A stretch of DNA of 64,000 nucleotides, from the NCBI GenBank assembly GCA_040004125.1, contig JBDUBL010000001.1:3850-67849 (forward strand), read 5' to 3'. This DNA is from Actinomycetota bacterium (GTDB lineage: Bacteria > Actinomycetota > UBA4738 > HRBIN12). This document shows, piece by piece, positions 40,636 through 51,687 of the stretch. The first letter of the stretch is position 1, and every line of letters starts with the position of its first letter. The position numbers and the translations under genes are program-made. Below the pieces are notes generated by a model that saw only the letters and a list, made by a program, of their open reading frames with translations, did no database searches and had not been told where the DNA came from.

Positions 40636-41578
40636 CGTCTCGGCGCTTCCGCCGCTGCACGAACTGGAACCCGAATCGGCCCTTCACACACAGATGCCCG
40701 TTCGTCACGACGTTGTCCGCGGGCGAGGTGACCTTGACTATCGAGTTGTCCTGAACGTGCAGCTCGAGCTCGCAGCCCACACCGCAATACGGACAGATCG
40801 TGTTCGTCACGCGTTGCGCGTCCTCGTCCCACGTGCCGGCTAAGCGCATGTCGTGTTCGCTGGTGAACATCAAGGCGCCGGTCGGACACACCCCGATGCA
40901 GTTGCCGCAATACACACAAGCGCTCGCATCGAGCGGCACGGCATATTCGGTCGAGATCCGGGCATCGAACCCGCGCCCGGCGACCGCGATCGCGAAGGTG
41001 AACTGCGCGTCGGTGCCGCAGGCCTCGACGCACTTGTAGCAGAGCACGCAACGCCCGTAGTCGCGCACGTACAGCTCGTTGTCGACCTTCACCGGCTGCG
41101 CGACCGTCTCGGCCGCCGCCGGGTTGGGCGCGTGGTGATGGCCCGGCTCGCGTCCGTCTCGCTCCCCAGTCGGCAAAGGGGTCATGCGCGCGCCGAATCG
41201 ATCCGGATCGGCGGCGTAGGCATCCTGCCAGCGGTGCCACTCGGGGCTCGCGAGCGACGTATCGACCGAGGACGCAAGGAACTCGATCACGAGTTTCCGC
41301 GAGCGACGCACCCGCTCGGTGTCGGTCGAGATCTTCATGCCCGCCTCCGCGGTTCGCGAGCACGCCGGCACGAGCACTCGCGAGCCTTCGACCTCGACCA
41401 CGCACACACGGCAGGCATTGATGGGGGTGAGGTTCTGCGCGTAGCACATCGTTGGGGTGTCGATGCCCTCGGCCGTACACGCGTCCAAGATCGTCGCGCC
41501 CTGCGGAACCCGCGCGGTGCGGCCATCGAGCTCGACGTCGATCAAGGTACGCGGCATCCCGAGCGGCACGGCGCTCAC
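40619..41578 (-). CDS. NuoG-like iron-sulfur subunit of formate dehydrogenase: 2Fe-2S, two 4Fe-4S ferredoxin motifs, plus the N-terminal 4Fe-4S cap of the molybdopterin (MopB) domain
   Basis: 2Fe-2S cysteines (CYAQNLTPINACRVC). Two CxxCxxCxxxCP motifs. Ends with CPYCGVGC...GHLCVKGRFGF, homologous to FdhF residues ~8-50. ATGA overlap with the NuoE/F gene. Confidence 0.8.
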   Translation of the reverse strand: MSAVPLGMPRTLIDVELDGRTARVPQGATILDACTAEGIDTPTMCYAQNLTPINACRVCVVEVEGSRVLVPACSRTAEAGMKISTDTERVRRSRKLVIEFLASSVDTSLASPEWHRWQDAYAADPDRFGARMTPLPTGERDGREPGHHHAPNPAAAETVAQPVKVDNELYVRDYGRCVLCYKCVEACGTDAQFTFAIAVAGRGFDARISTEYAVPLDASACVYCGNCIGVCPTGALMFTSEHDMRLAGTWDEDAQRVTNTICPYCGVGCELELHVQDNSIVKVTSPADNVVTNGHLCVKGRFGFQFVQRRKRRDGAAQR

Positions 41579-43395
41579 GCGGGCACCTCCCCGCCGAACA
41601 ACCCGAAGGTCGTGATCGCCGATTGCACGGCGCTTGCCGCGGTCTGCCCCAGGCCGCAGATGGACGCGTCGCGCATCACGGCGGCCACGTCCTCGAGCAG
41701 CGCGAGCTCATCGGGGGTGGAGCCCACCGTGCGACCGGCGACCAGCCGGTGAAGCGCCTCCTCCTGACGCACGGTCCCGACTCGACATGGCACGCACTGA
41801 CCACAGGACTCGTCGCGGAAGAACCGCGCGATCCGCAGACACAGGTCGACCAGATCGACGCCCTCGTCGAGCACCATGATCACCCCGGAGCCTAGGGTGT
41901 AGCCGCCGGTCCGCGCGTCCTCGAAGGTCAGCCGCACATCCAGTCGGTCGGGGCCGAGGAAGCCGCCGGCCGCGCCGCCCAGCAAGACGGCTTTGATGCC
42001 GGCGCCGTCGCGCGGGCCACCGGCAAGCGTGATCGCTTCGCGCAACGTGATTCCGTGCTCGGCCTCATAGACTCCGGGGTGCTCGATGTGACCCGACAGG
42101 CAGAAGAGCCGGGTGCCGGTCGATCCCTCGGTGCCGAGGGCCGCGTACGCGTCGGCCCCGAGCTCCATGATCGGGAGCACGTTGATCAGCGTCTCGACGT
42201 TGTTGATCGCCGTCGGTCGCCCGAAGACCCCGTGTGTGACGGGGAAGGGCGGCTTGTTCCGCGGCTCACCGCGCTTGCCCTCGATCGAGTTGAACAGCGA
42301 CGTCTCCTCGCCGCAGATGTAGGCGCCGGCGCCCCGGCGCAGCTCGATATCGAACGCGAAACCGCCGTGCATCACGTCGGGACCGAGGAGGGCTGCGTCA
42401 CGGGCATCCTCGATCGCGGCGAGCAGGTGCTTCGTTGCACGCGGGTACTCGCCACGGATGTACAGGTAGCCGGTCTCGGCCCCGGTGGCGAACCCCGCGA
42501 TCGTGAGCGCTTCGATGACCGCGAACGGATCGTGTTCCATGATCACACGGTCCTTGAAGGTGCCCGGCTCGGATTCGTCGGCGTTGCAGACCACGTGCTT
42601 GGGTCCCGGGGGCTGATCGGCGACCGCTCGCCACTTCACGCCGGTGGGGAATGCAGCACCACCTCGGCCGAGCAGCCTCGCATCGGTGACCTGTTGGATC
42701 ACGGCGTCTGGGCCCAGCTCGATCGCGCGCGCGAGTCCCGCGTACCCACCGTGCGCGCGGTAGTCGTGCAGCGATGCGGGATCGACCGAACCGACGCGTC
42801 GCAGCAGACGCTCGCCGCCGTGACGGGGGGCAAGCGCGGGAGGCGCCATCAGCGTGCGGTCGCCACGCACGGAGCCAACGATGTGCTCGGCGTCGGCGGG
42901 CGCGACCACGTGCGAGACCGCGCCGGCGCCGGCCTCCTGGAAGAACACCGCGGGCGCGGCGTCGCACATGCCGAGACACGGGCTCCGCACGACCCGAGCG
43001 TCGCCGGCAAGCTCAGCCTCCACGCGCGCCGCCATCGCGTCGCCGCCACGGATCCGGCAGGCCAGGTCGTCACAGACGTGCACGACCGTCGTCGGCTGCG
43101 GGGCGACGCTGAACATCGCGTAGAACGTCGCGACGCCGTAGGCCTCGGCGGGTGGCACGACCAGGCGCTCGCATGCGTAGCTGAGACCGCCCTCGCTGAT
43201 CCACCCGACGCGCGCCTGAAGCGCATGCAGTACGGGCAACAGCAAGGTGCGACGCTCTTCGGGGGCGCGCGACACGCGGAGATCGCGCTCCGTGCGCTCC
43301 CCGCCATCCCAGCCGGTCTCCGGCGCGCCAAGCACCGTATCGACCGCCGAACGCTCCTCGGCGGTTGGCTCCGCGGTCATCAGGTGCAGGTCCAC
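41575..43395 (-). CDS. NuoE-NuoF fusion, the NAD(H)-binding diaphorase subunit of formate dehydrogenase (FdsG/FdsB-like)
   Basis: N-terminal NuoE-like 2Fe-2S region (CDDLACRIRGG...CLGMCDAAP). NuoF FMN/NAD motifs (GRGGAAFPTGVKW, CNADESEPGTFKDR). C-terminal 4Fe-4S cysteines (ESCGQCVPCR...C). Confidence 0.85.
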   Translation of the reverse strand: MDLHLMTAEPTAEERSAVDTVLGAPETGWDGGERTERDLRVSRAPEERRTLLLPVLHALQARVGWISEGGLSYACERLVVPPAEAYGVATFYAMFSVAPQPTTVVHVCDDLACRIRGGDAMAARVEAELAGDARVVRSPCLGMCDAAPAVFFQEAGAGAVSHVVAPADAEHIVGSVRGDRTLMAPPALAPRHGGERLLRRVGSVDPASLHDYRAHGGYAGLARAIELGPDAVIQQVTDARLLGRGGAAFPTGVKWRAVADQPPGPKHVVCNADESEPGTFKDRVIMEHDPFAVIEALTIAGFATGAETGYLYIRGEYPRATKHLLAAIEDARDAALLGPDVMHGGFAFDIELRRGAGAYICGEETSLFNSIEGKRGEPRNKPPFPVTHGVFGRPTAINNVETLINVLPIMELGADAYAALGTEGSTGTRLFCLSGHIEHPGVYEAEHGITLREAITLAGGPRDGAGIKAVLLGGAAGGFLGPDRLDVRLTFEDARTGGYTLGSGVIMVLDEGVDLVDLCLRIARFFRDESCGQCVPCRVGTVRQEEALHRLVAGRTVGSTPDELALLEDVAAVMRDASICGLGQTAASAVQSAITTFGLFGGEVPA

Positions 43396-43405
43396 GCCGC
43401 GCAGG

Positions 43406-45325
43406 CTACCGTTCCGCCGCGACCGCGAGCTTCTCCACCCGGATCGCCGTGGCCTTGAACTCCGAGGTTCCGGACTTCGGGTCAGAGACGTCGTTCGTGA
43501 TCCGGTTGGTCGCGACCTGCTCCGGGAAGTGGAAGGTCATGAACGCGAGCCCCGCCCGCAGGGCGGTCGTGACGTGGACCGGGGCCTCGATCGCCCCACG
43601 GCGCGAGATGATCCGCACGACCTCGCCCTCGCCGACGTCCAGCGTGCGCGCGTCCTCGGGGCACAGATCGAGCGACTCCCCTCGGTGCAATGGCGAGGAG
43701 AACGCGTTGGTCTGCACACCGGTGTTATAGGACTCCAGCCGGCGTCCGGTCGTGAGGCGCATCGGGAATTCCTCGGTCAAGGTATCGGCCGGTGCCACGT
43801 CCTCCACCACCGAGAAGGGGGCCTTGCGCCCCTGCGCGTCGGGGTCCTCAAACGCCCACAGGCGCGCGTGCAGGAACTGCGCGCCATCGGGAAACTGCTC
43901 GTTGCAGGGCCATTGGATGCCACCGAGCTCCTCGATGCGCGCCCACGACATCAAGGTGTGCATGGGTGACAGCGCTCGGAGCTCGTCCCAGGCCTGTTCG
44001 GATGTCACGTCGCCCCAGTCGTTGCCCAGACGCGCGGCGAGCTGCGCGATGATCCACATATCGTCGCGCGCCTCACCGGGCGGCTCGAGCGCTTTGCGCA
44101 CGCGTTGGACCCGACGCTCGGAGTTCGTCACGGTGCCATCGGTCTCGAACGCGCCGTTCGCGGCCGGGAACACGACGTCGGCGAGCTCGGCGGTCTTAGT
44201 GAGAAAGATATCCTGCACGATCAGGGTGTCGAGCCCTTGGAGCAGGTGCACCGCGTGATCCTGGTCGGCCTCCGACGTGGCGGGGTTCTCGCCGATGCAG
44301 TACACGGCCGTGAGTTCGCCGCGGTCCATCGCCTCGAACATCTCGGTGAGGTGCCACCCGGTGCGCGGCTCGATCGGCACACCCCACGCCGCCTCGAACC
44401 GCGCGCGAGCGGCGGCATCGCTCTCGATGTCCTGGAACCCCGGCAGCTTGTTCGGGATCGCGCCCATGTCGCCGCCGCCCTGCACGTTGTTCTGGCCGCG
44501 GAGCGGGTTCAGACCGCTGCCGTAGCGACCCACATGACCGGTGAGCAGTCCGAGGTTGATCAACGACAGCACGTTGTCGACCGCGTTGCGGTGCTCGGTG
44601 ATACCGAGCGTCCAGCAGATCATGGCGTTCTCTGCCTCGGCCAATCCGTGTGCGAGATCTCGGATGACGTCGCTCGGAACGCCCGTGACCTCGGCGCCCC
44701 GCTCCAGTGTCCATTCCTCGACGCTCGAGGCGTACTCGGGGAAGTGCAGGGTCGCGCCTTCGATGAAGTCGGTCCGTGCGAGCCCCGCATGGATGATCTC
44801 GCGAGCGATCGTATTGGACAGACCCACGTCCGTGCCCACGTCGATGCCCAACCAGAGATCCGCGAATTCGGCCGTCTCGGTACGCCGCGGATCCACGACG
44901 ATCAGCCGGGCCTCACGCTGCATCGCCTTGAGGACATGGTGGAAGAAGATCGGATGCGCGGCGCGCGCATTCGACCCCCACAGCACGATGAGGTCCGTGT
45001 GCTCGACCTCTTCGTACGAGCTGGTACCGCCCCCGGCACCGAACACGGTCGCCAGACCGACGACCGAAGGTGCGTGTCAGGTGCGGTTGCAGCTATCGAT
45101 GTTGTTCGTTCGAAGGACTTGGCGAGCGAACTTCCCTGCGATGAAGTTCATCTCGTTCGTGGCCTTCGAGCAGCTGAAGATCCCTGCCCCCCAGCCGGGG
45201 TTCCGCTCCATCGCGCGACGCAGCCCCCCGGCGGCCCGGTCAAGGGCCTCATCCCAGGTGGCGGCACGCAGCGCTCCGTTCTCACGGACCATCGGCTCGG
45301 TCAGCCGGGTCATCGATGCCGACAT
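43406..45325 (-). CDS. fdhA: formate dehydrogenase molybdopterin catalytic subunit, selenocysteine-containing (in-frame TGA at 45077-45079). It lacks its own N-terminal 4Fe-4S cap
   Basis: Track ORFs 45077..45361 and 43406..45046 are in the same frame and separated only by a TGA. The context ...KFARQVLRTNNIDSCNRT-U-HAPSVVGL aligns with E. coli FdhF ...[27 protein letters not shown]. Downstream MopB domains are intact. Start at ATG 45325 with GGAGGAAGGAG 9 nt upstream. Confidence 0.75.
45035..45076 (-). promoter_or_regulatory. bacterial SECIS-like hairpin immediately 3' of the UGA
   Basis: mRNA reads UGA-CAC-GCA-CCU-UCG-GUC-GUC-GGU-CUG-GCG-ACC. CGGUCGUCGGUCUGGCGACCG folds into a ~9-bp stem with the apical GGUCUG at +22..+27 from the U of UGA, the same motif and spacing as the E. 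coli fdhF SECIS. Confidence 0.55.
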
Positions 45326-45421
45326 CGATCGGCGCTCCTTCCTCCGGCGCGAAACTCGCACCGGACGCCTCGATTGTAGGACCGCCGGGACTCGGTTCGG
45401 GAACCGGCGGTTGACCCGCGT

Positions 45422-45994
45422 TCAAAGCATCCCGACCTCGCGGTAGCGGTAGCAACCCGTGATGTGGTCGTTCACGAAGCCCGCGGCCTGCATGAAGGCG
45501 TAGCAGACGGTCGGGCCCACGAACCGGAACCCTCGGGCCTTGAGCTCCTTGGACATCGTGCGGGACTCCGACGTTTCGGCGGGAACGTCGGACTGATCTC
45601 GCCAGCGGTTGACCTTCGCGGCGCCTCCCACGAAGCCCCACAGCAGCGTGTCGAGCGTCAGCCCTTCCTCGGCAAGGCCGAGCACCGCGCGCGCATTCGA
45701 CACTGTCGAGGTAACCTTCAGCCGGTTGCGCACGATCGAAGGGTCCCCGAGCAGTCGCTCGATGCGGGCGGGGTCGAACCGGGCCACGGCTGCCGCGTCG
45801 AACCCGGCGAACGCCCGCCGGTAGCCCTCCCGCTTGGACAGGATCGTTCGCCACGACAACCCGGCCTGAGCGCCCTCGAGGGTCAGCATCTCGAACAGGT
45901 GGCGCTCGTCGTGCACCGGCACGCCCCACTCGTCGTCGTGATACACGAGGTAGACCGGCTCGTCGAGAGGCACCCACGCACACCGAGGCGGCAT
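45422..45994 (-). CDS. tag: DNA-3-methyladenine glycosylase I
   Basis: RCAWV...YHDDEWGVP...Zn-site C/H residues typical of Tag. Confidence 0.8.
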   Translation of the reverse strand: MPPRCAWVPLDEPVYLVYHDDEWGVPVHDERHLFEMLTLEGAQAGLSWRTILSKREGYRRAFAGFDAAAVARFDPARIERLLGDPSIVRNRLKVTSTVSNARAVLGLAEEGLTLDTLLWGFVGGAAKVNRWRDQSDVPAETSESRTMSKELKARGFRFVGPTVCYAFMQAAGFVNDHITGCYRYREVGML

Positions 45995-46066
45995 CGGCAC
46001 ACGCTACGACACGGCGCCGACGGGGTCGGGTGGACCCTTGGGGCGGAACGGGTCCATGATGGGTCG

Positions 46067-46915
46067 ATGCACGAGCCGACCCCGATCCCCATCCACGAGC
46101 TCCCGACGGACCCCGATCCGTCGGGAGAGGCGCCCGGCACGGCGGTCCCGCCCGGGGTCGAACAGGCGATCGACGTCCTGATCGGCCTCGTCACGCTGGC
46201 CACGAACGCCGCCGCCTCGATCCTGCGTGGTGACGAGGAGCCGGGCGCCGGGGCTGAGGGCGCCACCCTTGTGACCGGTGCGGCCGCCGGGTTCCTGATC
46301 GAAGGCCTGCGCGCCGCCGGCGCGGTGCTCACCGCATTCGAGCGCACCCTCGTCGCGCCGGCCACCACCGTGGCGGGTGCCGCCGCCGAGCGCCCCGAGA
46401 TCCGCGAGCTCCTGGAGCACTGGCAGGCTTCGTGGGAGGAACAGCGCGATCAGAGCGAGCCCGTCGCGGCCGACACCCTGCGTCGCGGGATCCGCCGAGG
46501 CGCGGACGCTCTCATGGACCAGCTCGATCTGACCCAGCTGGTGATCGATCACCTCGACATCCAACGGGTCGCCGAGCAGATCGACATCGACGCCCTCGTC
46601 GGAGGTCTCGACATCGATCGGCTGATCGATCGCATGGACATGGACCGTTTGGCATCGCGGATCGACATCGACGCGCTCGTTGCCCGGCTCGACGTCGAGG
46701 CCGTTGTCGACAACCTCGACGTTGCGGCGATCGCCGCCGACGTGATCGATGAGCTCGACTTGCCACAGCTGATCCGAGATGCGACCGCCGACATCACCTC
46801 CGACGGCGTGCGCACCGCGCGTCTTCGTGGGGTCGGGGCCGATCGCGCGCTCCGGCGCGCGGTCGATCGCATCCTGGCCCGGTCCGAGGCGACGGACACC
46901 GGGGAGCGCCGATGA
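46067..46915 (+). CDS. protein with eight or more tandem nonapeptide repeats (hD-h-D-x-L-h-x-x, e.g. LDIDRLIDR / MDMDRLASR / IDIDALVAR)
   Basis: Internal ATG (MHEPTPIPI). N-terminal Ala/Gly-rich region, then the repeat array, then an Arg-rich tail. ATGA overlap with the downstream RDD gene. Confidence 0.55.
   Translation: MHEPTPIPIHELPTDPDPSGEAPGTAVPPGVEQAIDVLIGLVTLATNAAASILRGDEEPGAGAEGATLVTGAAAGFLIEGLRAAGAVLTAFERTLVAPATTVAGAAAERPEIRELLEHWQASWEEQRDQSEPVAADTLRRGIRRGADALMDQLDLTQLVIDHLDIQRVAEQIDIDALVGGLDIDRLIDRMDMDRLASRIDIDALVARLDVEAVVDNLDVAAIAADVIDELDLPQLIRDATADITSDGVRTARLRGVGADRALRRAVDRILARSEATDTGERR
46524..46770. repeat. ~9 x 27-bp imperfect in-frame tandem repeats (consensus ctcgacatcgacgcgctcgtcgcccgg) encoding the nonapeptide array
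   Basis: Read from the sequence at 46524-46770. Confidence 0.65.
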
Positions 46916-47508
46916 CCGATCCGCGCTTCCGCGTCGAGACGGTGCCCCTGGAGGCGCGCGGCTTCCAAGGACAACCGGCGGGACTCATCACGCGGGTCGC
47001 CGCCAACGTGATCGACCTGGCCGCCGTGCTGGTCGCGCTGGTGGTCTGTTATCTCGCCACGGCGGGGGTCCTGTTCCTTCGCCGCGGCGCCCGGTTCTCG
47101 TTCCCGATCGTGTCGTATCCGACGGCGTTTTGGGCCGGGTTGCTCGCCCTGGTCGTCTATTTCGCGGTCTCCTGGGCAACGGGGGGTCGCACCTACGGCG
47201 ACCGCGTGCTCGGGTTGCGCGTCACCACCGCTGCCGGCCTCGGTCTCGGCGGTGCTCGAGCCACCGTGCGGGCCGTGCTGTCCGCGTTGTTCCCCGTGCT
47301 CCTCCTCTGGGTCGCGGTGAGTCGGGCCAGCCGTTCGATACAAGACCTCGTCGTTGGCACCGTCGTGATCTATGACTGGGGGCCGGCGAGACGCGTGATC
47401 GCCTCAGGCGACGCGATCGGGGTGGCTGTAGATGTTGCATCGCCCGTCGCGCACGAAGCCGAGGACCGTAACGCCGAGGCGGTTACCGGCCTCGACCGCG
47501 AGCGATGA
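46912..47508 (+). CDS. RDD family membrane protein
   Basis: RDD motif (RTYGDRVLGLRV) between TM helices. Translationally coupled to the repeat protein. The C-terminal ~35 codons overlap fdhD convergently. Confidence 0.6.
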   Translation: MTDPRFRVETVPLEARGFQGQPAGLITRVAANVIDLAAVLVALVVCYLATAGVLFLRRGARFSFPIVSYPTAFWAGLLALVVYFAVSWATGGRTYGDRVLGLRVTTAAGLGLGGARATVRAVLSALFPVLLLWVAVSRASRSIQDLVVGTVVIYDWGPARRVIASGDAIGVAVDVASPVAHEAEDRNAEAVTGLDRER

Positions 47509-48240
47509 CGGTGCGCTGACGGCGCTCACCACCGGGATCCCCGCCACGGCGGCCTTCTGCACGATCTCGAACGACGCGCGACCCGAGACCTGCAGGATCG
47601 CCTCGGACAGGGGCACCCGGCCGGCAAGCATCTGCTCGCCGATCACCTTGTCGACGGCGTTGTGCCTGCCCACGTCCTCGCGGATCGCGATCGGCTCGCC
47701 CGCGGCGGTGAACAGCCCCGCGGCGTGCAGGCCGCCGGTCCGGTCGAAGACCTGCTGGGCGGCGCGCAGTCGCTCGGGTAACCCGACCAGCACGGCGGCG
47801 GGCACCGTCAAGCCGAGCGGCACCACGGCGCATCGCACGGCGATGTCGTCCAGCGACGCCTTCCCGCACACACCGCAGGACGAGGTTGCGAAGAAGTTCC
47901 GACGGAGCCGCTCGGTGTCCACGGGCGTCGCCAGCGTGACCGTCACGACGTTGTAGCGCTGGTCTTCGTCATCGAGGTCGTCGCAATACGCGACCCGACG
48001 CACGTCCCCGGAACCCACCAACCCTTCCGTGAACAGGAACCCTGCGGCGAGTTCGAAGTCGCCGCCGGGCGTGCGCATCGTCACGGCGACCTGCGATGCC
48101 TCTTGCCCGGGCCCCTGGGCCCGGATCTCCAGCGGTTCCTCGGTCGCAAGGGTGTCTGCCCGCTCGCCCCGGGTGCCGTCGTGGACGGTCACCACCCGAA
48201 CGGGGGTCACGTTGCGACGGATCTGCTCGGGAGCGGCCAC
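47404..48240 (-). CDS. fdhD: formate dehydrogenase accessory sulfurtransferase FdhD
   Basis: SCGVCGK and GRHNAVDK motifs. Start approximate (GTG at 48240). The ORF N-terminus is run-on. Confidence 0.85.
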   Translation of the reverse strand: MAAPEQIRRNVTPVRVVTVHDGTRGERADTLATEEPLEIRAQGPGQEASQVAVTMRTPGGDFELAAGFLFTEGLVGSGDVRRVAYCDDLDDEDQRYNVVTVTLATPVDTERLRRNFFATSSCGVCGKASLDDIAVRCAVVPLGLTVPAAVLVGLPERLRAAQQVFDRTGGLHAAGLFTAAGEPIAIREDVGRHNAVDKVIGEQMLAGRVPLSEAILQVSGRASFEIVQKAAVAGIPVVSAVSAPSSLAVEAGNRLGVTVLGFVRDGRCNIYSHPDRVA

Positions 48241-48295
48241 GGCACCAAGCCTATCGCTCCGACACGCAGAGGCCGCTATCGGGCATGATGCGAGT

Positions 48296-48661
48296 ATGGC
48301 GACACCGGATGATCGCGAGTACGGCGACCCCACGCGGCGCACGTATCTGGCCGAGGAACGGACACTGCTCGCGTGGTGGCGCTCGGGACTGGCGGCCCTG
48401 GCCGTCGCGCTGGCGGTCGGCCGGTTACTCCCCGCCCTGCTGGACGAGCGCGAGGCGACGGGGTTCGTCCTGCTCGGCGCCGGGTTCGCCTTGGTCGGCG
48501 TGGCGTTGATCCTGCTCGGCGCGCTTCGCCATCGCGCCGTGGAGCACGCGCTCGCCCGGGGACAGTTCCACGCCTTGCCTGCCGTCGTGACCTGGGGGAT
48601 CACGGGGGCGATGCTCGTGCTCGCCGCCGGAACCTTGATCCTGGTGATCACCGAGACCTGA
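48296..48661 (+). CDS. DUF202 (YidH-like) membrane protein
   Basis: RTYLAEERTLLAWWRSGLAALAVALAVG is the DUF202 signature. Internal ATG. Divergent from fdhD. Confidence 0.6.
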   Translation: MATPDDREYGDPTRRTYLAEERTLLAWWRSGLAALAVALAVGRLLPALLDEREATGFVLLGAGFALVGVALILLGALRHRAVEHALARGQFHALPAVVTWGITGAMLVLAAGTLILVITET

Positions 48662-48767
48662 CCTGTGGTCAGAGGCCCTGCCGGACCGATTCTCTTGCGC
48701 GCGAGGCCTTGCGCTAAGGTCTCATGCGCCGTACACCATCCCACCTGCGAAGGAGTCGATCGCCACC

Positions 48768-50438
48768 ATGAAGTCCGGCCTCGAGATCGCCCAGGAAGCC
48801 ATCCTTCGCCCGATCGCCGACGTGGCCGCCGATGCCGGCATCCACCCCGACGAGCTCAAACCCTATGGCTCGACCCGAGCCAAGGTGTCCTTGTCGATCC
48901 TCGAGCGCCTGGCGGATCGAAGGGACGGGAAGCTCATCATCACGACCGCGATCACCCCGACGAAGGCCGGCGAAGGAAAGACGACCACCTCGGTGTCGCT
49001 CACCCAGGGCCTGGGGGCGATCGGCAAGCAGGTCGTCTTGGCCCTTCGCGAGCCGAGCATGGGCCCGGTGTTCGGGATCAAGGGCGGCGGGACCGGGGGT
49101 GGCTACGCGCAGGTCGTGCCGATGGAGGAGATCAACCTGCACTTCAACGGCGACTTCCACGCCATCACCGCCGCGCACAACCTCTTGTCCGCCGCACTGG
49201 ACGCCTCGATCTACCACGGCGATCCCCTCGGCATCGATCCGCAGTCGATCACCTGGCCGCGGACCCTCGACGTGAACGACCGCGAGTTGCGCAACACGGT
49301 GGTCGGCCTTGGCGGCAAGGCCCACGGCATCCCCCGTCAGGAGGGGTTCGTGATCACGGCGGCCTCCGAGATCATGGCGATCCTGGCGTTGGCGAGCGAT
49401 CTGCACGACCTTCGCGGCCGGCTCGGCCGTATCATCGTCGCCGCCACCTACGACGGCGCCCCGGTGACCGCCGAGGACCTTCGCGTCGCGGGCGCGATGA
49501 CCGTGATCATGCGCGATGCGATCGAGCCGAACCTCGTACAGACGCTCGAGCATCAACCCGTGCTGCTGCACGCGGGGCCGTTCGGCAATATCGCGCATGC
49601 GAACAACTCGATCATCGAGGATCGGATCGCCCTCAAACTCGCCGACTACGTCGTGACCGAAGCGGGCTTCGGAAGCGATCTCGGATTCCAGAAGTTCTGC
49701 GACATCGTGTGCCGCTTCGGCGGGTTCGTCCCGAGCGCCGGGGTGCTCGTCACCACCGTGCGGGCCACCAAATCTCACGGCGGGATGCCGTTCGCCGATC
49801 TCGGCAACGAGGATCTCGACGCGCTCAGCCGCGGGATCGACAACCTGACGGCCCACGTCGCTATCCTTCGCGAGTACGGCCTGCCGTGCGTCGTGTCCAT
49901 CAACAACTTCCCCGACGACACCGACGCCGAGATCGAGCTGATCCGCAGACTGGCGGTCGATGCCGGCGCTGAGACCGTCGTCGTGAACCGCGGGTTCGCC
50001 GAGGGTGGCCGGGGCGCCATCGAGCTGGCGGAAGCCGTGGTGACGGCCTGCGAGCGGCCGAACACCTTCCATCAGCTCACACCGCCGGACACGCCGCTGC
50101 GGGTGCAGATCGACACCATCGCGACGAAGCTCTACGGCGCCGAGGGCGTGGACTATCTGCCGCAGGCCGAGAAGGACCTCGCGCGCATGGACCAGCTCGG
50201 GTTCGGCACGGTACCGGTGTGCATGGCCAAGACCCACTTGTCCCTCAGCCACGATCCGCTGCTGCTGGATCGCCCAACCGGGTTCCGCCTGCCCGTACGC
50301 AGCGTGGTGCCGAGCGCGGGCGCCGGGTTCGTCGTCGCGCTGTGCGGCGACATGCAGCGGATGCCTGGGCTGGGGAAGACGCCGAACTACATGGGCGTGG
50401 ACATCGACGCCGACGGCACGACGACGGGGCTGTTCTGA
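48768..50438 (+). CDS. fhs: formate--tetrahydrofolate ligase
   Basis: TPTKAGEGKTTTSVSL and GPVFGIKGGGTGGGYAQV motifs. Full length (556 aa). Confidence 0.9.
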   Translation: MKSGLEIAQEAILRPIADVAADAGIHPDELKPYGSTRAKVSLSILERLADRRDGKLIITTAITPTKAGEGKTTTSVSLTQGLGAIGKQVVLALREPSMGPVFGIKGGGTGGGYAQVVPMEEINLHFNGDFHAITAAHNLLSAALDASIYHGDPLGIDPQSITWPRTLDVNDRELRNTVVGLGGKAHGIPRQEGFVITAASEIMAILALASDLHDLRGRLGRIIVAATYDGAPVTAEDLRVAGAMTVIMRDAIEPNLVQTLEHQPVLLHAGPFGNIAHANNSIIEDRIALKLADYVVTEAGFGSDLGFQKFCDIVCRFGGFVPSAGVLVTTVRATKSHGGMPFADLGNEDLDALSRGIDNLTAHVAILREYGLPCVVSINNFPDDTDAEIELIRRLAVDAGAETVVVNRGFAEGGRGAIELAEAVVTACERPNTFHQLTPPDTPLRVQIDTIATKLYGAEGVDYLPQAEKDLARMDQLGFGTVPVCMAKTHLSLSHDPLLLDRPTGFRLPVRSVVPSAGAGFVVALCGDMQRMPGLGKTPNYMGVDIDADGTTTGLF

Positions 50439-50442
50439 CCCG

Positions 50443-50856
50443 CTAGGCAACATCATCGTCAGCGGGCATGACGCAGAACTCGTTGCCCTCTGGGTCAAGC
50501 ATCACGCACCACACGCCCCCGTCGCCCTCGGCCCAGTTGTGGATCGAGGCGCCGATCCCCTCGAGCCGTTCCACCTCGGCCTCGAGGTCATCGTCGGCGA
50601 CCACGTCCAGATGCACGCGGTTCTTCGACATCTTGCCCTCCGGCACCTCGGTGAAAAACAGCACGGGCAGCGCCGTGCCCTCCGGCGGCTCGACCATCAC
50701 CGAGGGATCCTCCTCGGGGTCCGTGATGCCCTTGGCCGCCAGGCGCGTCAGCTCGACCTCGTCGTAGGGAGCGATCGTCCACCCTAACGTGGCCGCCCAG
50801 AATCGAGCCAACGGGGCCGCGTCGCGGCAGTCGAAGACGATCGCGTCGATCCGCAC
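50443..50856 (-). CDS. VOC (glyoxalase/bleomycin-resistance) family protein
   Basis: Fold-level match to the small VOC domain. Low sequence specificity. Confidence 0.6.
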   Translation of the reverse strand: MRIDAIVFDCRDAAPLARFWAATLGWTIAPYDEVELTRLAAKGITDPEEDPSVMVEPPEGTALPVLFFTEVPEGKMSKNRVHLDVVADDDLEAEVERLEGIGASIHNWAEGDGGVWCVMLDPEGNEFCVMPADDDVA

Positions 50857-50907
50857 GCAGGCAGCCTGGCGCGACGCGACGCCGAGCGCAAGCCCGCCCG
50901 GTGTTGA

Positions 50908-51687
50908 TCAGACGTGCAGCGCGATCATGAACGCCTCGCTGACATCGCGCAGGATCGACTGAGCACGATGCCGCAGGGAGTTCGCGGAGTCGGTGAGCTC
51001 GTGCTGGCGCGTTTTGTCCAGGAACGTGATCGCGTTGATATCGACGTTGGCCAGCGCCGACAGGGTCGCCGCGTGCAGCGATGTCGCCGCGCTCAGCGCG
51101 TCGGAGGCCGCGTTCGGGTTGCCGTTGGCCAGCGTCTCCTCGGCCAAGCTCATCAGGTACACGGAGCGCCGGGCCACTTCCAGCGGGATGTCCGCCGCGC
51201 GCTCCAATGCCTTCTGGAGTGTGAACCCCCATGTGTGCTGCTCCTCGGGGGTCGTCTTGGGCAGCTTGTAGGCCGCCATGACGGCCTGGTAGGCCTCGGC
51301 GTCCCTGTCCGCGAGGCCGAGCAGCGCGTAGCGTTCGTCGTCGCACTCGTCGGCGATCGTGCGCATGCGGTCGGCGACGGGTTCGAAACCCTTCTTCTTC
51401 AGAGTCAAGCGCGCGACCATCGCGATCAGGGAGGCGCCGGCGGCGGCCGAGACGGCGGCCCAGGCGCCGCCACCGGGCGTCGGCGAGTCCGACGCGAGGT
51501 CTTCCAGATAGGCGCCCACCCGAGATCCCGCCGTCGGCATGTCATCGATCGGCACCTTGCTGGGCGCCGAGGTCGTCGCCGGGCCGCCGCTGGCCCAGGT
51601 CCCCCCGGAGGTCTCCGCGGACATATCGGGGATCGGCGCCGGCGCGAGTTCCTGCTTCCGCTCGGGCGACATCCACTGGTCACTCAT
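50908..51687 (-). CDS. cyclodeaminase/cyclohydrolase family protein (FTCD C-terminal-like / FchA-like)
   Basis: GGGAWAAVSAAAGASLIAMVARLT and the following helical bundle match PF04961. Low-complexity N-terminal linker. ATGA overlap with the formimidoyltransferase gene. Confidence 0.7.
   Translation of the reverse strand: MSDQWMSPERKQELAPAPIPDMSAETSGGTWASGGPATTSAPSKVPIDDMPTAGSRVGAYLEDLASDSPTPGGGAWAAVSAAAGASLIAMVARLTLKKKGFEPVADRMRTIADECDDERYALLGLADRDAEAYQAVMAAYKLPKTTPEEQHTWGFTLQKALERAADIPLEVARRSVYLMSLAEETLANGNPNAASDALSAATSLHAATLSALANVDINAITFLDKTRQHELTDSANSLRHRAQSILRDVSEAFMIALHV

Follow-up and report, generated by a model that had tools for sequence, protein, structure and literature searches.

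A nine-residue tandem-repeat protein family paired with an RDD membrane protein in Actinomycetota

Introduction

The RTX repeat has a period of nine residues, follows the consensus GGxGxDxUx with a Gly-rich, Ca2+-binding turn, and forms a parallel beta-roll. The same period is found in coiled coils, in which consecutive nonads give rise to an alpha/beta coiled coil, a trimeric fibre (Hartmann et al., 2016; PMC4786415). In Tcar0761 of Thermosinus (PDB 5APZ), with 14 copies of MATKDDIAN, three residues of each nonad belong to a beta-layer and six are helical, and OMP100 of Actinobacillus (5APP) is another alpha/beta coiled coil with nonads (PMC4786415). The register of this class is written a-b-c-b1-b2-b3-e-f-g, and its motif is [aliphatic]-[A/V]-[DNTS]-[K/R]-polar-[D/E/Q] (PMC4786415). 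Pentapeptide and hexapeptide repeats have periods of five or six residues, and the known alpha-solenoids, e.g., HEAT, TPR, LRV and TALE, are made of tandem helix-turn units of 24-42 residues with helices of at least 10 residues. Here, we describe a protein with a nine-residue repeat, encoded by gene A in a stretch of 64,000 nucleotides (nt) from an Actinomycetota bacterium (GenBank assembly GCA_040004125.1, contig JBDUBL010000001.1, positions 3,850 to 67,849 of the forward strand; hereafter, the window), and its association with gene B immediately downstream, which encodes a membrane protein of the RDD family (Table 1).

RDD proteins are common in bacteria, and we know of only one with a proposed activity. 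This characterized member, from Halobacillus andaensis, is reported to be a Na+(Li+,K+)/H+ antiporter for which D154, R124, R129 and D158 are essential (PMC5996927). The literature that we searched describes no partner protein for an RDD protein.

Results

Genes A and B form a conserved two-gene module

Genes A and B constitute a conserved module with obligate pairing across Actinomycetota. Among loci with at least 650 nt of downstream sequence, an RDD-like open reading frame (ORF) follows gene A on the same strand in 97 of 97 cases, as a separate ORF in 93 and as part of a shared ORF in 4. In the window, the start codon of gene B overlaps the stop codon of gene A in the tetranucleotide ATGA. 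Such a 4-nt overlap, RTGA, joins 60 of the 88 pairs in non-redundant loci, and the genes of almost all other pairs lie within ~15 nt of each other. The association also holds in the reverse direction. When the search was seeded with the RDD protein, the repeat gene was found directly upstream in all three cases tested (Amycolatopsis and two metagenomic contigs), and this RDD subfamily is always preceded by the repeat gene. A preliminary description of the locus, made from the sequence, had proposed coupling through the ATGA to an RDD protein and had suggested conservation of the neighbourhood as a check. Both proposals hold: the pair is conserved, and the product of gene B matches the Pfam family RDD (PF06271) with 41 bits (cut-off 24.1; E = 2.9e-10). 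We consider a functional pairing of the repeat protein with the RDD protein strongly supported.

Some long-read assemblies of soil metagenome-assembled genomes (MAGs) show the pair as one ORF or have garbled sequence downstream, and the fusions in them are untrustworthy. Three fusions from the MFD series of such MAGs (L023, L062 and L086) were set aside as probable indel artefacts; the sequence of L086 is that of L131 with a frameshift, and in L131 the two genes overlap but stay separate. One protein (P0082), in which repeats and an RDD domain are joined in a single chain by a different linker, appears to be genuine.

No third conserved neighbour was found, and the genomic context of the pair varies between lineages. 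Placement between fdhA- and fdhD-like genes, as in the window, is confined to a minority, with an FdhD-like ORF convergently downstream in 8 loci. In another minority (L121, L131, L129 and L037), small genes of membrane or stress type lie upstream. Upstream genes encode PLDc_N/SHOCT proteins in ~12 loci, DUF1269 proteins in ~7 and DUF7144 proteins in others; all of these are too inconsistent to be counted as part of the module.

Gene A belongs to a widespread, unnamed actinobacterial family

The product of gene A is identical to an NCBI MAG protein (P0001) annotated as 'hypothetical protein, Actinomycetota bacterium'. A word-indexed search retrieved 83 relatives (P0001 and 82 homologs), every one of them annotated as hypothetical, and a HMMER scan with the family profile against 1.84 billion cluster representatives (clustered at 50% identity) returned 2,207 clusters at E<=1e-3, of which 617 reach E<=1e-30; the clusters, too, are all named hypothetical. 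To retrieve genomic loci, the C-terminal motif DLPE[IL][IV]RE[ST]T was turned into a degenerate DNA pattern. This yielded 120 loci, of which ~110 were confirmed by the family profile; the pattern matches in Streptomyces, Verrucomicrobiota and Gemmatimonadota were not confirmed and are attributed to chance. Confirmed members occur in Nocardioides, Rhodococcus, Rhodococcoides, Pseudonocardia, Terrabacter, Nostocoides and Actinoplanes and in many soil MAGs. With a Rhodococcus protein as seed, a further search added Prescottella equi (REQ_39240 in strain 103S), R. ruber and others, and Amycolatopsis (L129) carries a minimal version of 150 aa. We found no literature on REQ_39240 and its neighbours.

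The protein has no match in Pfam or NCBIfam, and ten diverse relatives have none in Pfam. Comparison with PADLOC and PHROGs gave nothing significant, and an origin in a defence system or a phage was rejected on these empty results. A plasmid search gave no match, and the PDB, queried by sequence with both the family profile and the segment spanning the repeat and the C-terminus, returned noise only. The preliminary description had named absence from close relatives as the mark of a strain-specific artefact; instead, a large family was found. The gene A family is real, widespread, actinobacterial and unnamed, and not an artefact.

In 229 representatives, the arrays hold between 3 and 21 in-register units. 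Variation between strains, which the preliminary description had proposed to look for, is real: 13 strain variants from P. equi, 97-99% identical, differ solely by -27, -18, +9 or +18 residues, all inside the array. In evolution, the unit number changes only in whole units.

The nine-residue unit is maintained at the protein level

Gene A is read in the frame of an ORF at 45464-46915, with the ATG at 46067 taken as the start. Its product is rich in Ala (16%), Asp (11%), Leu (11%) and Arg (10%), contains no Lys at all and has a net charge of -26. The array was initially seen as nine tandem nonapeptides, and the period is borne out. In a BLOSUM62 self-similarity analysis of residues 150-242 against shuffled sequences, peaks occur at lags of 9, 18 and 27 only (z = 6.5, 5.9 and 6.0); at the remaining lags |z| is ~3 or less (z = 0.7 at lag 5 and -1.4 at lag 6), and assignment to the pentapeptide or hexapeptide repeats is dismissed, as it had been in the preliminary description. 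The units are not strictly contiguous, however. H162 is skipped, and the last of the nine is out of register. The array instead consists of an opening unit of 10 residues, in which D154 and T156 are almost invariant (alignment A1), and seven in-register nonads (in order, LDIQRVAEQ, IDIDALVGG, LDIDRLIDR, MDMDRLASR, IDIDALVAR, LDVEAVVDN and LDVAAIAAD). A 4-residue insertion, VIDE, then precedes LDLPQ, which opens the C-terminal module, so that the closing unit has 13 residues.

The claim that 27-bp tandem DNA repeats encode the array stands in part. The 27-nt period is present in the DNA, but Tandem Repeats Finder reported no repeat in the array and the seven units are only 57% identical on average, with 44% identity at third codon positions. 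The units are therefore old and maintained by selection at the protein level rather than the outcome of recent slippage, and the DNA period exists only as a reflection of that of the protein.

Across the family, 1,987 units give the consensus R(68%)-[V/L/I]-D(96%)-[L/V/I/M]-D(55%)-A(54%)-[I/V/L]-[V/A]-[A/D/E], with aliphatic residues at positions 2 (V/L/I in 98%), 4, 7 (I/V/L in 93%) and 8 (V/A in 73%). Pro is tolerated chiefly at positions 3, 4 and 6, i.e., in the first turn of the helix that is predicted for each unit, and Gly chiefly at positions 9 and 1, at its C-end, where it reaches 5-7% and is lower at all other positions. The spacing between consecutive h-D anchors (h denoting an aliphatic residue) is 9 residues in 71% of cases, 10 in 10% and 13 in 11%; the rest are 18 or 27, at degenerate units. 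The spacing of 10 corresponds to the opening QLDLTxLV unit and that of 13 to the closing unit in all examples printed, each occurring about once per protein (216 in 229 for the spacing of 10). None of the spacings seen is compatible with heptads (16 or 23).

The N-terminal region begins with a conserved MHEPxPIPIH sequence, followed by an Ala/Gly-rich stretch with long predicted helices. In the family, its length ranges from 73 to 217 aa (5th to 95th percentile), and it is almost missing from minimal homologs of 150-157 aa (L129 and L132). In the clade of the window, MHEPxPIPIH(D/E)L (46067-46100, aa 1-11) is strongly conserved. More distant members have the related MEQIPIGG in its place, and Rhodococcus, Prescottella and the minimal versions lack it. 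This N-terminus could be a short docking motif. The C-terminal module, with the pattern DLPxhIRxxT...R...ADR...VDRhLxR, is net basic (+3) and carries most of the invariant residues, viz. I227, R237, R252, D259 and R272 (alignment A1).

The array is predicted to consist of short capped helices

An AlphaFold2 (AF2) monomer of the gene A protein, built on an alignment of 53 sequences, is all-helical and extended, with a predicted local distance difference test (pLDDT) score of 72 and a predicted template-modelling score (pTM) of 0.26. Long helices flank the array (residues 29-53, 63-106, 110-130, 133-152 and 232-279), the last of which lies in the C-terminal module and has the highest pLDDT in the model. 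In the array, each of the seven nonads is modelled as a 7-residue helix and a 2-residue break exactly at h2-D3 with a pLDDT of ~80 (among them helices 165-171, 174-180, 183-189, 192-198, 201-207 and 210-216). Foldseek with this model, the check named in the preliminary description, surfaced no known family (0 matches in PDB and only matches with E>1 in the viral BFVD). With no match in Pfam, NCBIfam or PDB sequences either, the repeat still fits no described class, as had first been thought. In the predicted helices, Asp3 appears to be the N-cap, and a hydrophobic staple would be formed by the aliphatic positions 2 (N') and 7 (N4). The acidic first turn, the Arg at the helix C-end and the placement of Pro and Gly also seem to agree with helix-capping rules.

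A continuous straight helix, in which 18 residues would make 5 turns, was considered less likely on account of the Asp-specific conservation, the occurrence of Pro inside units and the breaks in the model.

The beta-solenoid or Ca2+ scaffold suggested in the preliminary description fares poorly. According to this idea, the alternation of aliphatic residues and Asp reflects a beta-solenoid or another Ca2+/Mg2+ scaffold, in which a ladder of Asp residues coordinates cations. The array does have 21 acidic residues in 81, including the well-conserved Asp3 and the Asp5 found in about half of the units, and the h-D-h-D segment alternates as in a beta-strand. A cation-binding partner is conceivable as well, given that the characterized RDD protein is reported to be a cation/proton antiporter (PMC5996927). 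The model, however, has helices throughout the array in place of beta-strands, and the Gly- or Asn-rich turns of RTX and other beta-solenoids are missing. Arg at position 1 is able to pair with Asp, and the Asp, aliphatic, Pro and Gly positions all fit capping rules. Because the 96%-conserved Asp sits at the position of the helix N-cap, with aliphatic residues at N' and N4, Ca2+ is not needed to explain it. Known Ca2+-dependent repeat folds moreover act extracellularly, whereas the gene A protein has no signal peptide. Free Ca2+ is low in the cytoplasm. We regard a metal scaffold as improbable.

The initial exclusion of RTX repeats is likewise upheld. Both arrays have a nine-residue period, a conserved Asp and aliphatic residues in each unit, and a variable copy number. 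The gene A family nevertheless lacks a Gly-rich turn, with Gly at no more than 7% anywhere and at 5-7% at two unit positions only, and is predicted to be all-helical where RTX is a beta-roll. It also differs from RTX in having no type I secretion system genes nearby and no secretion signal, in a Gram-positive, high-GC host.

The lack of a signal peptide and of a clear transmembrane helix suggests that the gene A protein is probably cytoplasmic. Hydrophobicity is borderline: the maximum KD19 is 1.83 for the gene A protein and has a median of 1.73 in the family, where only 13% of proteins attain 2.0.

An alpha/beta coiled coil is the main alternative

The main alternative is that the array forms a homotrimeric alpha/beta coiled coil of the Tcar0761 kind, standing as a fibre or stalk on the RDD protein, possibly on three copies of it. 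The two have much in common, including a strict 9-residue period in long uninterrupted arrays, longer flanking helices, and units of about six helical residues with a short non-helical segment. The class has consecutive nonads, and 71% of the anchor spacings in the gene A family are exactly 9. The sequences share the order aliphatic, small aliphatic, x, basic, x, Asp, aliphatic. In the register I7-V8-x9-R1-h2-D3-L4-D5-A6, the hydrophobic residue (or Lys) that the class has at b1 is matched by an aliphatic one, its small hydrophobic b2 by V/A in 73% of units, e by R/K in 71% and g by D in 96%; an aliphatic residue also stands at a, and polar or small ones at b and c. Extended, without a Foldseek neighbour and with ~6-7 helical and 2-3 non-helical residues per nonad, the AF2 monomer also resembles the protomer of a fibre, and long helices are predicted on both sides of the array.

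The fit is imperfect in several respects. In this register, position f, the exposed polar position of the known motif, is occupied by a conserved aliphatic residue, and b3, where an N-capping residue is expected, has one in only ~30% of units (D 22% and S 8%, against A 34%). The helix breaks in the model fall at h2-D3 rather than at 7-9. An alternative register with D3 as b3 places L/I at the central b2 in 55% of units, which is too bulky, and neither e nor g fits. E or Q hardly ever takes the place of Asp3, though the g position tolerates both. The heptad-compatible spacings of 16 and 23 do not occur, and no PDB chain resembles the family in sequence, the solved beta-layer proteins included. 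The RDD partner and the actinobacterial host set the family apart as well. We consider a coiled coil of this type possible but rather unlikely.

Gene B encodes an RDD protein with three predicted helices

All 47 aligned relatives of gene B match RDD. As in the rest of the RDD family, Arg is found at the start of helix 1 and Asp within it; these residues, R28 and D35, are invariant in alignment A4, and several more Arg and Asp are conserved in the segments flanking the membrane helices. The AF2 model (pLDDT 79, pTM 0.69, with residues 20-130 above 90) has predicted membrane helices at 25-61, 69-90 and 114-135 and short strands at 102-106 and 150-154, followed by a tail (159-198) that is predicted to be disordered (pLDDT < 50). 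RDD partners in other lineages are shorter (155-179 aa) and lack this tail.

The last 35 codons of gene B overlap the 3' end of an FdhD-like ORF on the opposite strand over 105 nt, as they do in L001 and L002. Overprinting may have produced the tail as a side effect, in which case it would not be a functional extension.

When the gene B model was compared with PDB by Foldseek, the only matches of appreciable probability were the three transmembrane subunits Pex2, Pex10 and Pex12 of a peroxisomal retro-translocon (7T92; probability 0.82-0.92, E ~0.1, TM-score 0.33-0.39, root-mean-square deviation 6-11 A). Pex2_Pex12 (PF04757) was also the commonest sub-threshold Pfam match among the 47 RDD partners, second in frequency to RDD itself (6 of 47 at E<0.1; best E = 0.0016), with 17.2 bits for gene B (cut-off 25.1). 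The RDD protein could accordingly be pictured as an oligomeric pore or translocon-like assembly with a distant resemblance to the transmembrane domains of Pex2, Pex10 and Pex12, and the acidic repeat protein as its substrate, plug or gate instead of a passive scaffold. All of these signals are below significance, however, and amount to a lead only; the Pex proteins have 5 helices where the RDD protein has 3. Our literature search found no paper linking the RDD and Pex families, and nothing points to translocation of the repeat protein. We regard such a pore as highly improbable.

Genomic surroundings

In the window, the repeat/RDD pair lies inside a neighbourhood of one-carbon metabolism (41575-51687) that is syntenic with L001. 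It encodes NuoF-like and FdhA-like formate dehydrogenase subunits, a Tag glycosylase, FdhD, a DUF202 protein, formate-tetrahydrofolate ligase, a glyoxalase and an FTCD-like protein. In other lineages, the pair is found in unrelated contexts.

The gene for the formate dehydrogenase alpha-like subunit (43406-45361, minus strand) is a single frame interrupted by one in-frame TGA at 45077-45079. The TGA is at the active-site position (...NIDSCNRT-TGA-HAPSVVGL), and an identical split into 82 + 546 aa was called in L001 and L002, which is more in keeping with a selenocysteine codon than with a pseudogene. A hairpin whose apical loop reads GGUCU starts ~14 nt past the UGA, with a folding energy no better than that of shuffled sequences (z = -0.5). 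ARAGORN found no tRNA or tmRNA genes in the whole window, and no Rfam family reached its gathering score there. The features of the repeat/RDD pair are listed in Table 1.

Table 1. Positions of genes A and B and of their parts in the window.
Feature	Position	Strand	Basis
Gene A, acidic nonad-repeat protein, 282 aa	46067..46915	+	ORF and translation
N-terminal region, aa 1-152	46067..46522	+	alignment A1, AF2
Repeat region, aa 153-233	46523-46765	+	
Opening 10-residue unit LDLTQLVIDH, aa 153-162	46523..46552	+	h-D anchor spacing
Seven in-register nonads, aa 163-225	46553..46741	+	periodicity, consensus, AF2 helices
Conserved C-terminal module, aa 226-282, VIDELDLPQLIRDATADITSDGVRTARLRGVGADRALRRAVDRILAR	46742..46912	+	alignment A1, AF2
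ATGA, start of gene B overlapping stop of gene A	46912..46915	+	sequence
Gene B, RDD-family membrane protein, 198 aa	46912..47508	+	Pfam PF06271
Convergent 105-nt overlap of the 3' end of the RDD ORF with the 3' end of the FdhD-like ORF (minus strand)	47404..47508	.	ORF list

Discussion

The observations can be brought together in a model to which we give about an even chance, namely that the gene A protein is a cytoplasmic rod of variable length, made of Asp-capped mini-helices and docked on an RDD partner in the membrane. The conserved core of the protein comprises the 10-residue opening unit, n nonads of the form R-h-D-h-D-A-h-h-x, the 13-residue closing unit and the basic C-terminal module. 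Each nonad may represent a minimal two-turn alpha-helix, with a hydrophobic staple and an Asp N-cap at its start and an Arg at its end, and the array would be a stack or rod of such helices with its length set by the number of units. The protein would be co-translated with a dedicated RDD subfamily through the stop/start overlap, and the RDD protein would be its partner or anchor in the membrane. Docking may occur between the invariant charged residues of this module and the Arg/Asp-rich juxtamembrane face of the RDD protein, such that the acidic rod projects into the cytoplasm and could act as a spacer, a scaffold or a regulator of RDD activity in the membrane. The data show the repeat, the family, the variation in copy number, the obligate pairing of the genes and the helical prediction; physical binding, the cytoplasmic location and the role as rod or spacer are what we infer from them. 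The capped mini-helix rod is the best reading of the monomer prediction and the capping rules, and co-translation with docking on the RDD protein appears to be the best reading of the genomic linkage. Tuning of length by unit number is the best reading of the observed variation in copy number.

Several points weigh against this model. The adjacency and overlap of the genes speak for shared expression and function but are no proof that the two proteins physically form a complex, and most of the apparent fusions of the repeat protein with the RDD protein are probably indel errors in long-read MAGs. At a pTM of 0.26, the AF2 monomer is uninformative on how the mini-helices pack, and with no analogue found by Foldseek, a 9-residue alpha-solenoid has no confirmed precedent. 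The four aliphatic positions per nonad could be equally compatible with burial in an oligomer. Finally, the sidedness of the RDD loops is deduced, and Arg is found on both sides of the first transmembrane helix.

The rod of mini-helices may be compared with the alpha-solenoids. The HEAT, TPR, LRV and TALE repeats resemble it in their tandem helix-turn units, in the pattern of a hydrophobic core and in the gain and loss of units, and a scaffold role is likely in both. The difference is one of scale, with a unit of 9 residues and one two-turn helix in the gene A family. Overall, the preliminary interpretation is partly supported. By the standards of the current libraries, the protein, a short helical tandem-repeat protein, has a new class of repeat; the partnership with RDD is strong, and the array is predicted to be helical rather than beta.

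In conclusion, we have described an actinobacterial repeat protein family that is encoded together with a particular subfamily of RDD proteins. We put forward tentatively, at clearly less than even chances, that the array is a fold type without a solved representative, either a mini-helix solenoid or a new class of alpha/beta coiled coil, and that it serves as a length-adjustable cytoplasmic arm of the RDD protein. If true, this arm would be the first obligate partner of the RDD family and an experimental handle on it. A partner that is strictly co-inherited and translationally coupled offers a concrete way to learn what one RDD subfamily, at least, does. For a helical repeat, the unit is unusually short; it is also very regular and varies in copy number between strains of a single pathogen, P. 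equi, which makes the array well suited to studying how a rod-like protein is tuned by the number of its units. The array may also be a natural instance of the alpha/beta coiled coil, a rare architecture, or a new relative of it. With ~2,200 clusters and no Pfam or NCBIfam model, the family can be added to the domain databases immediately.

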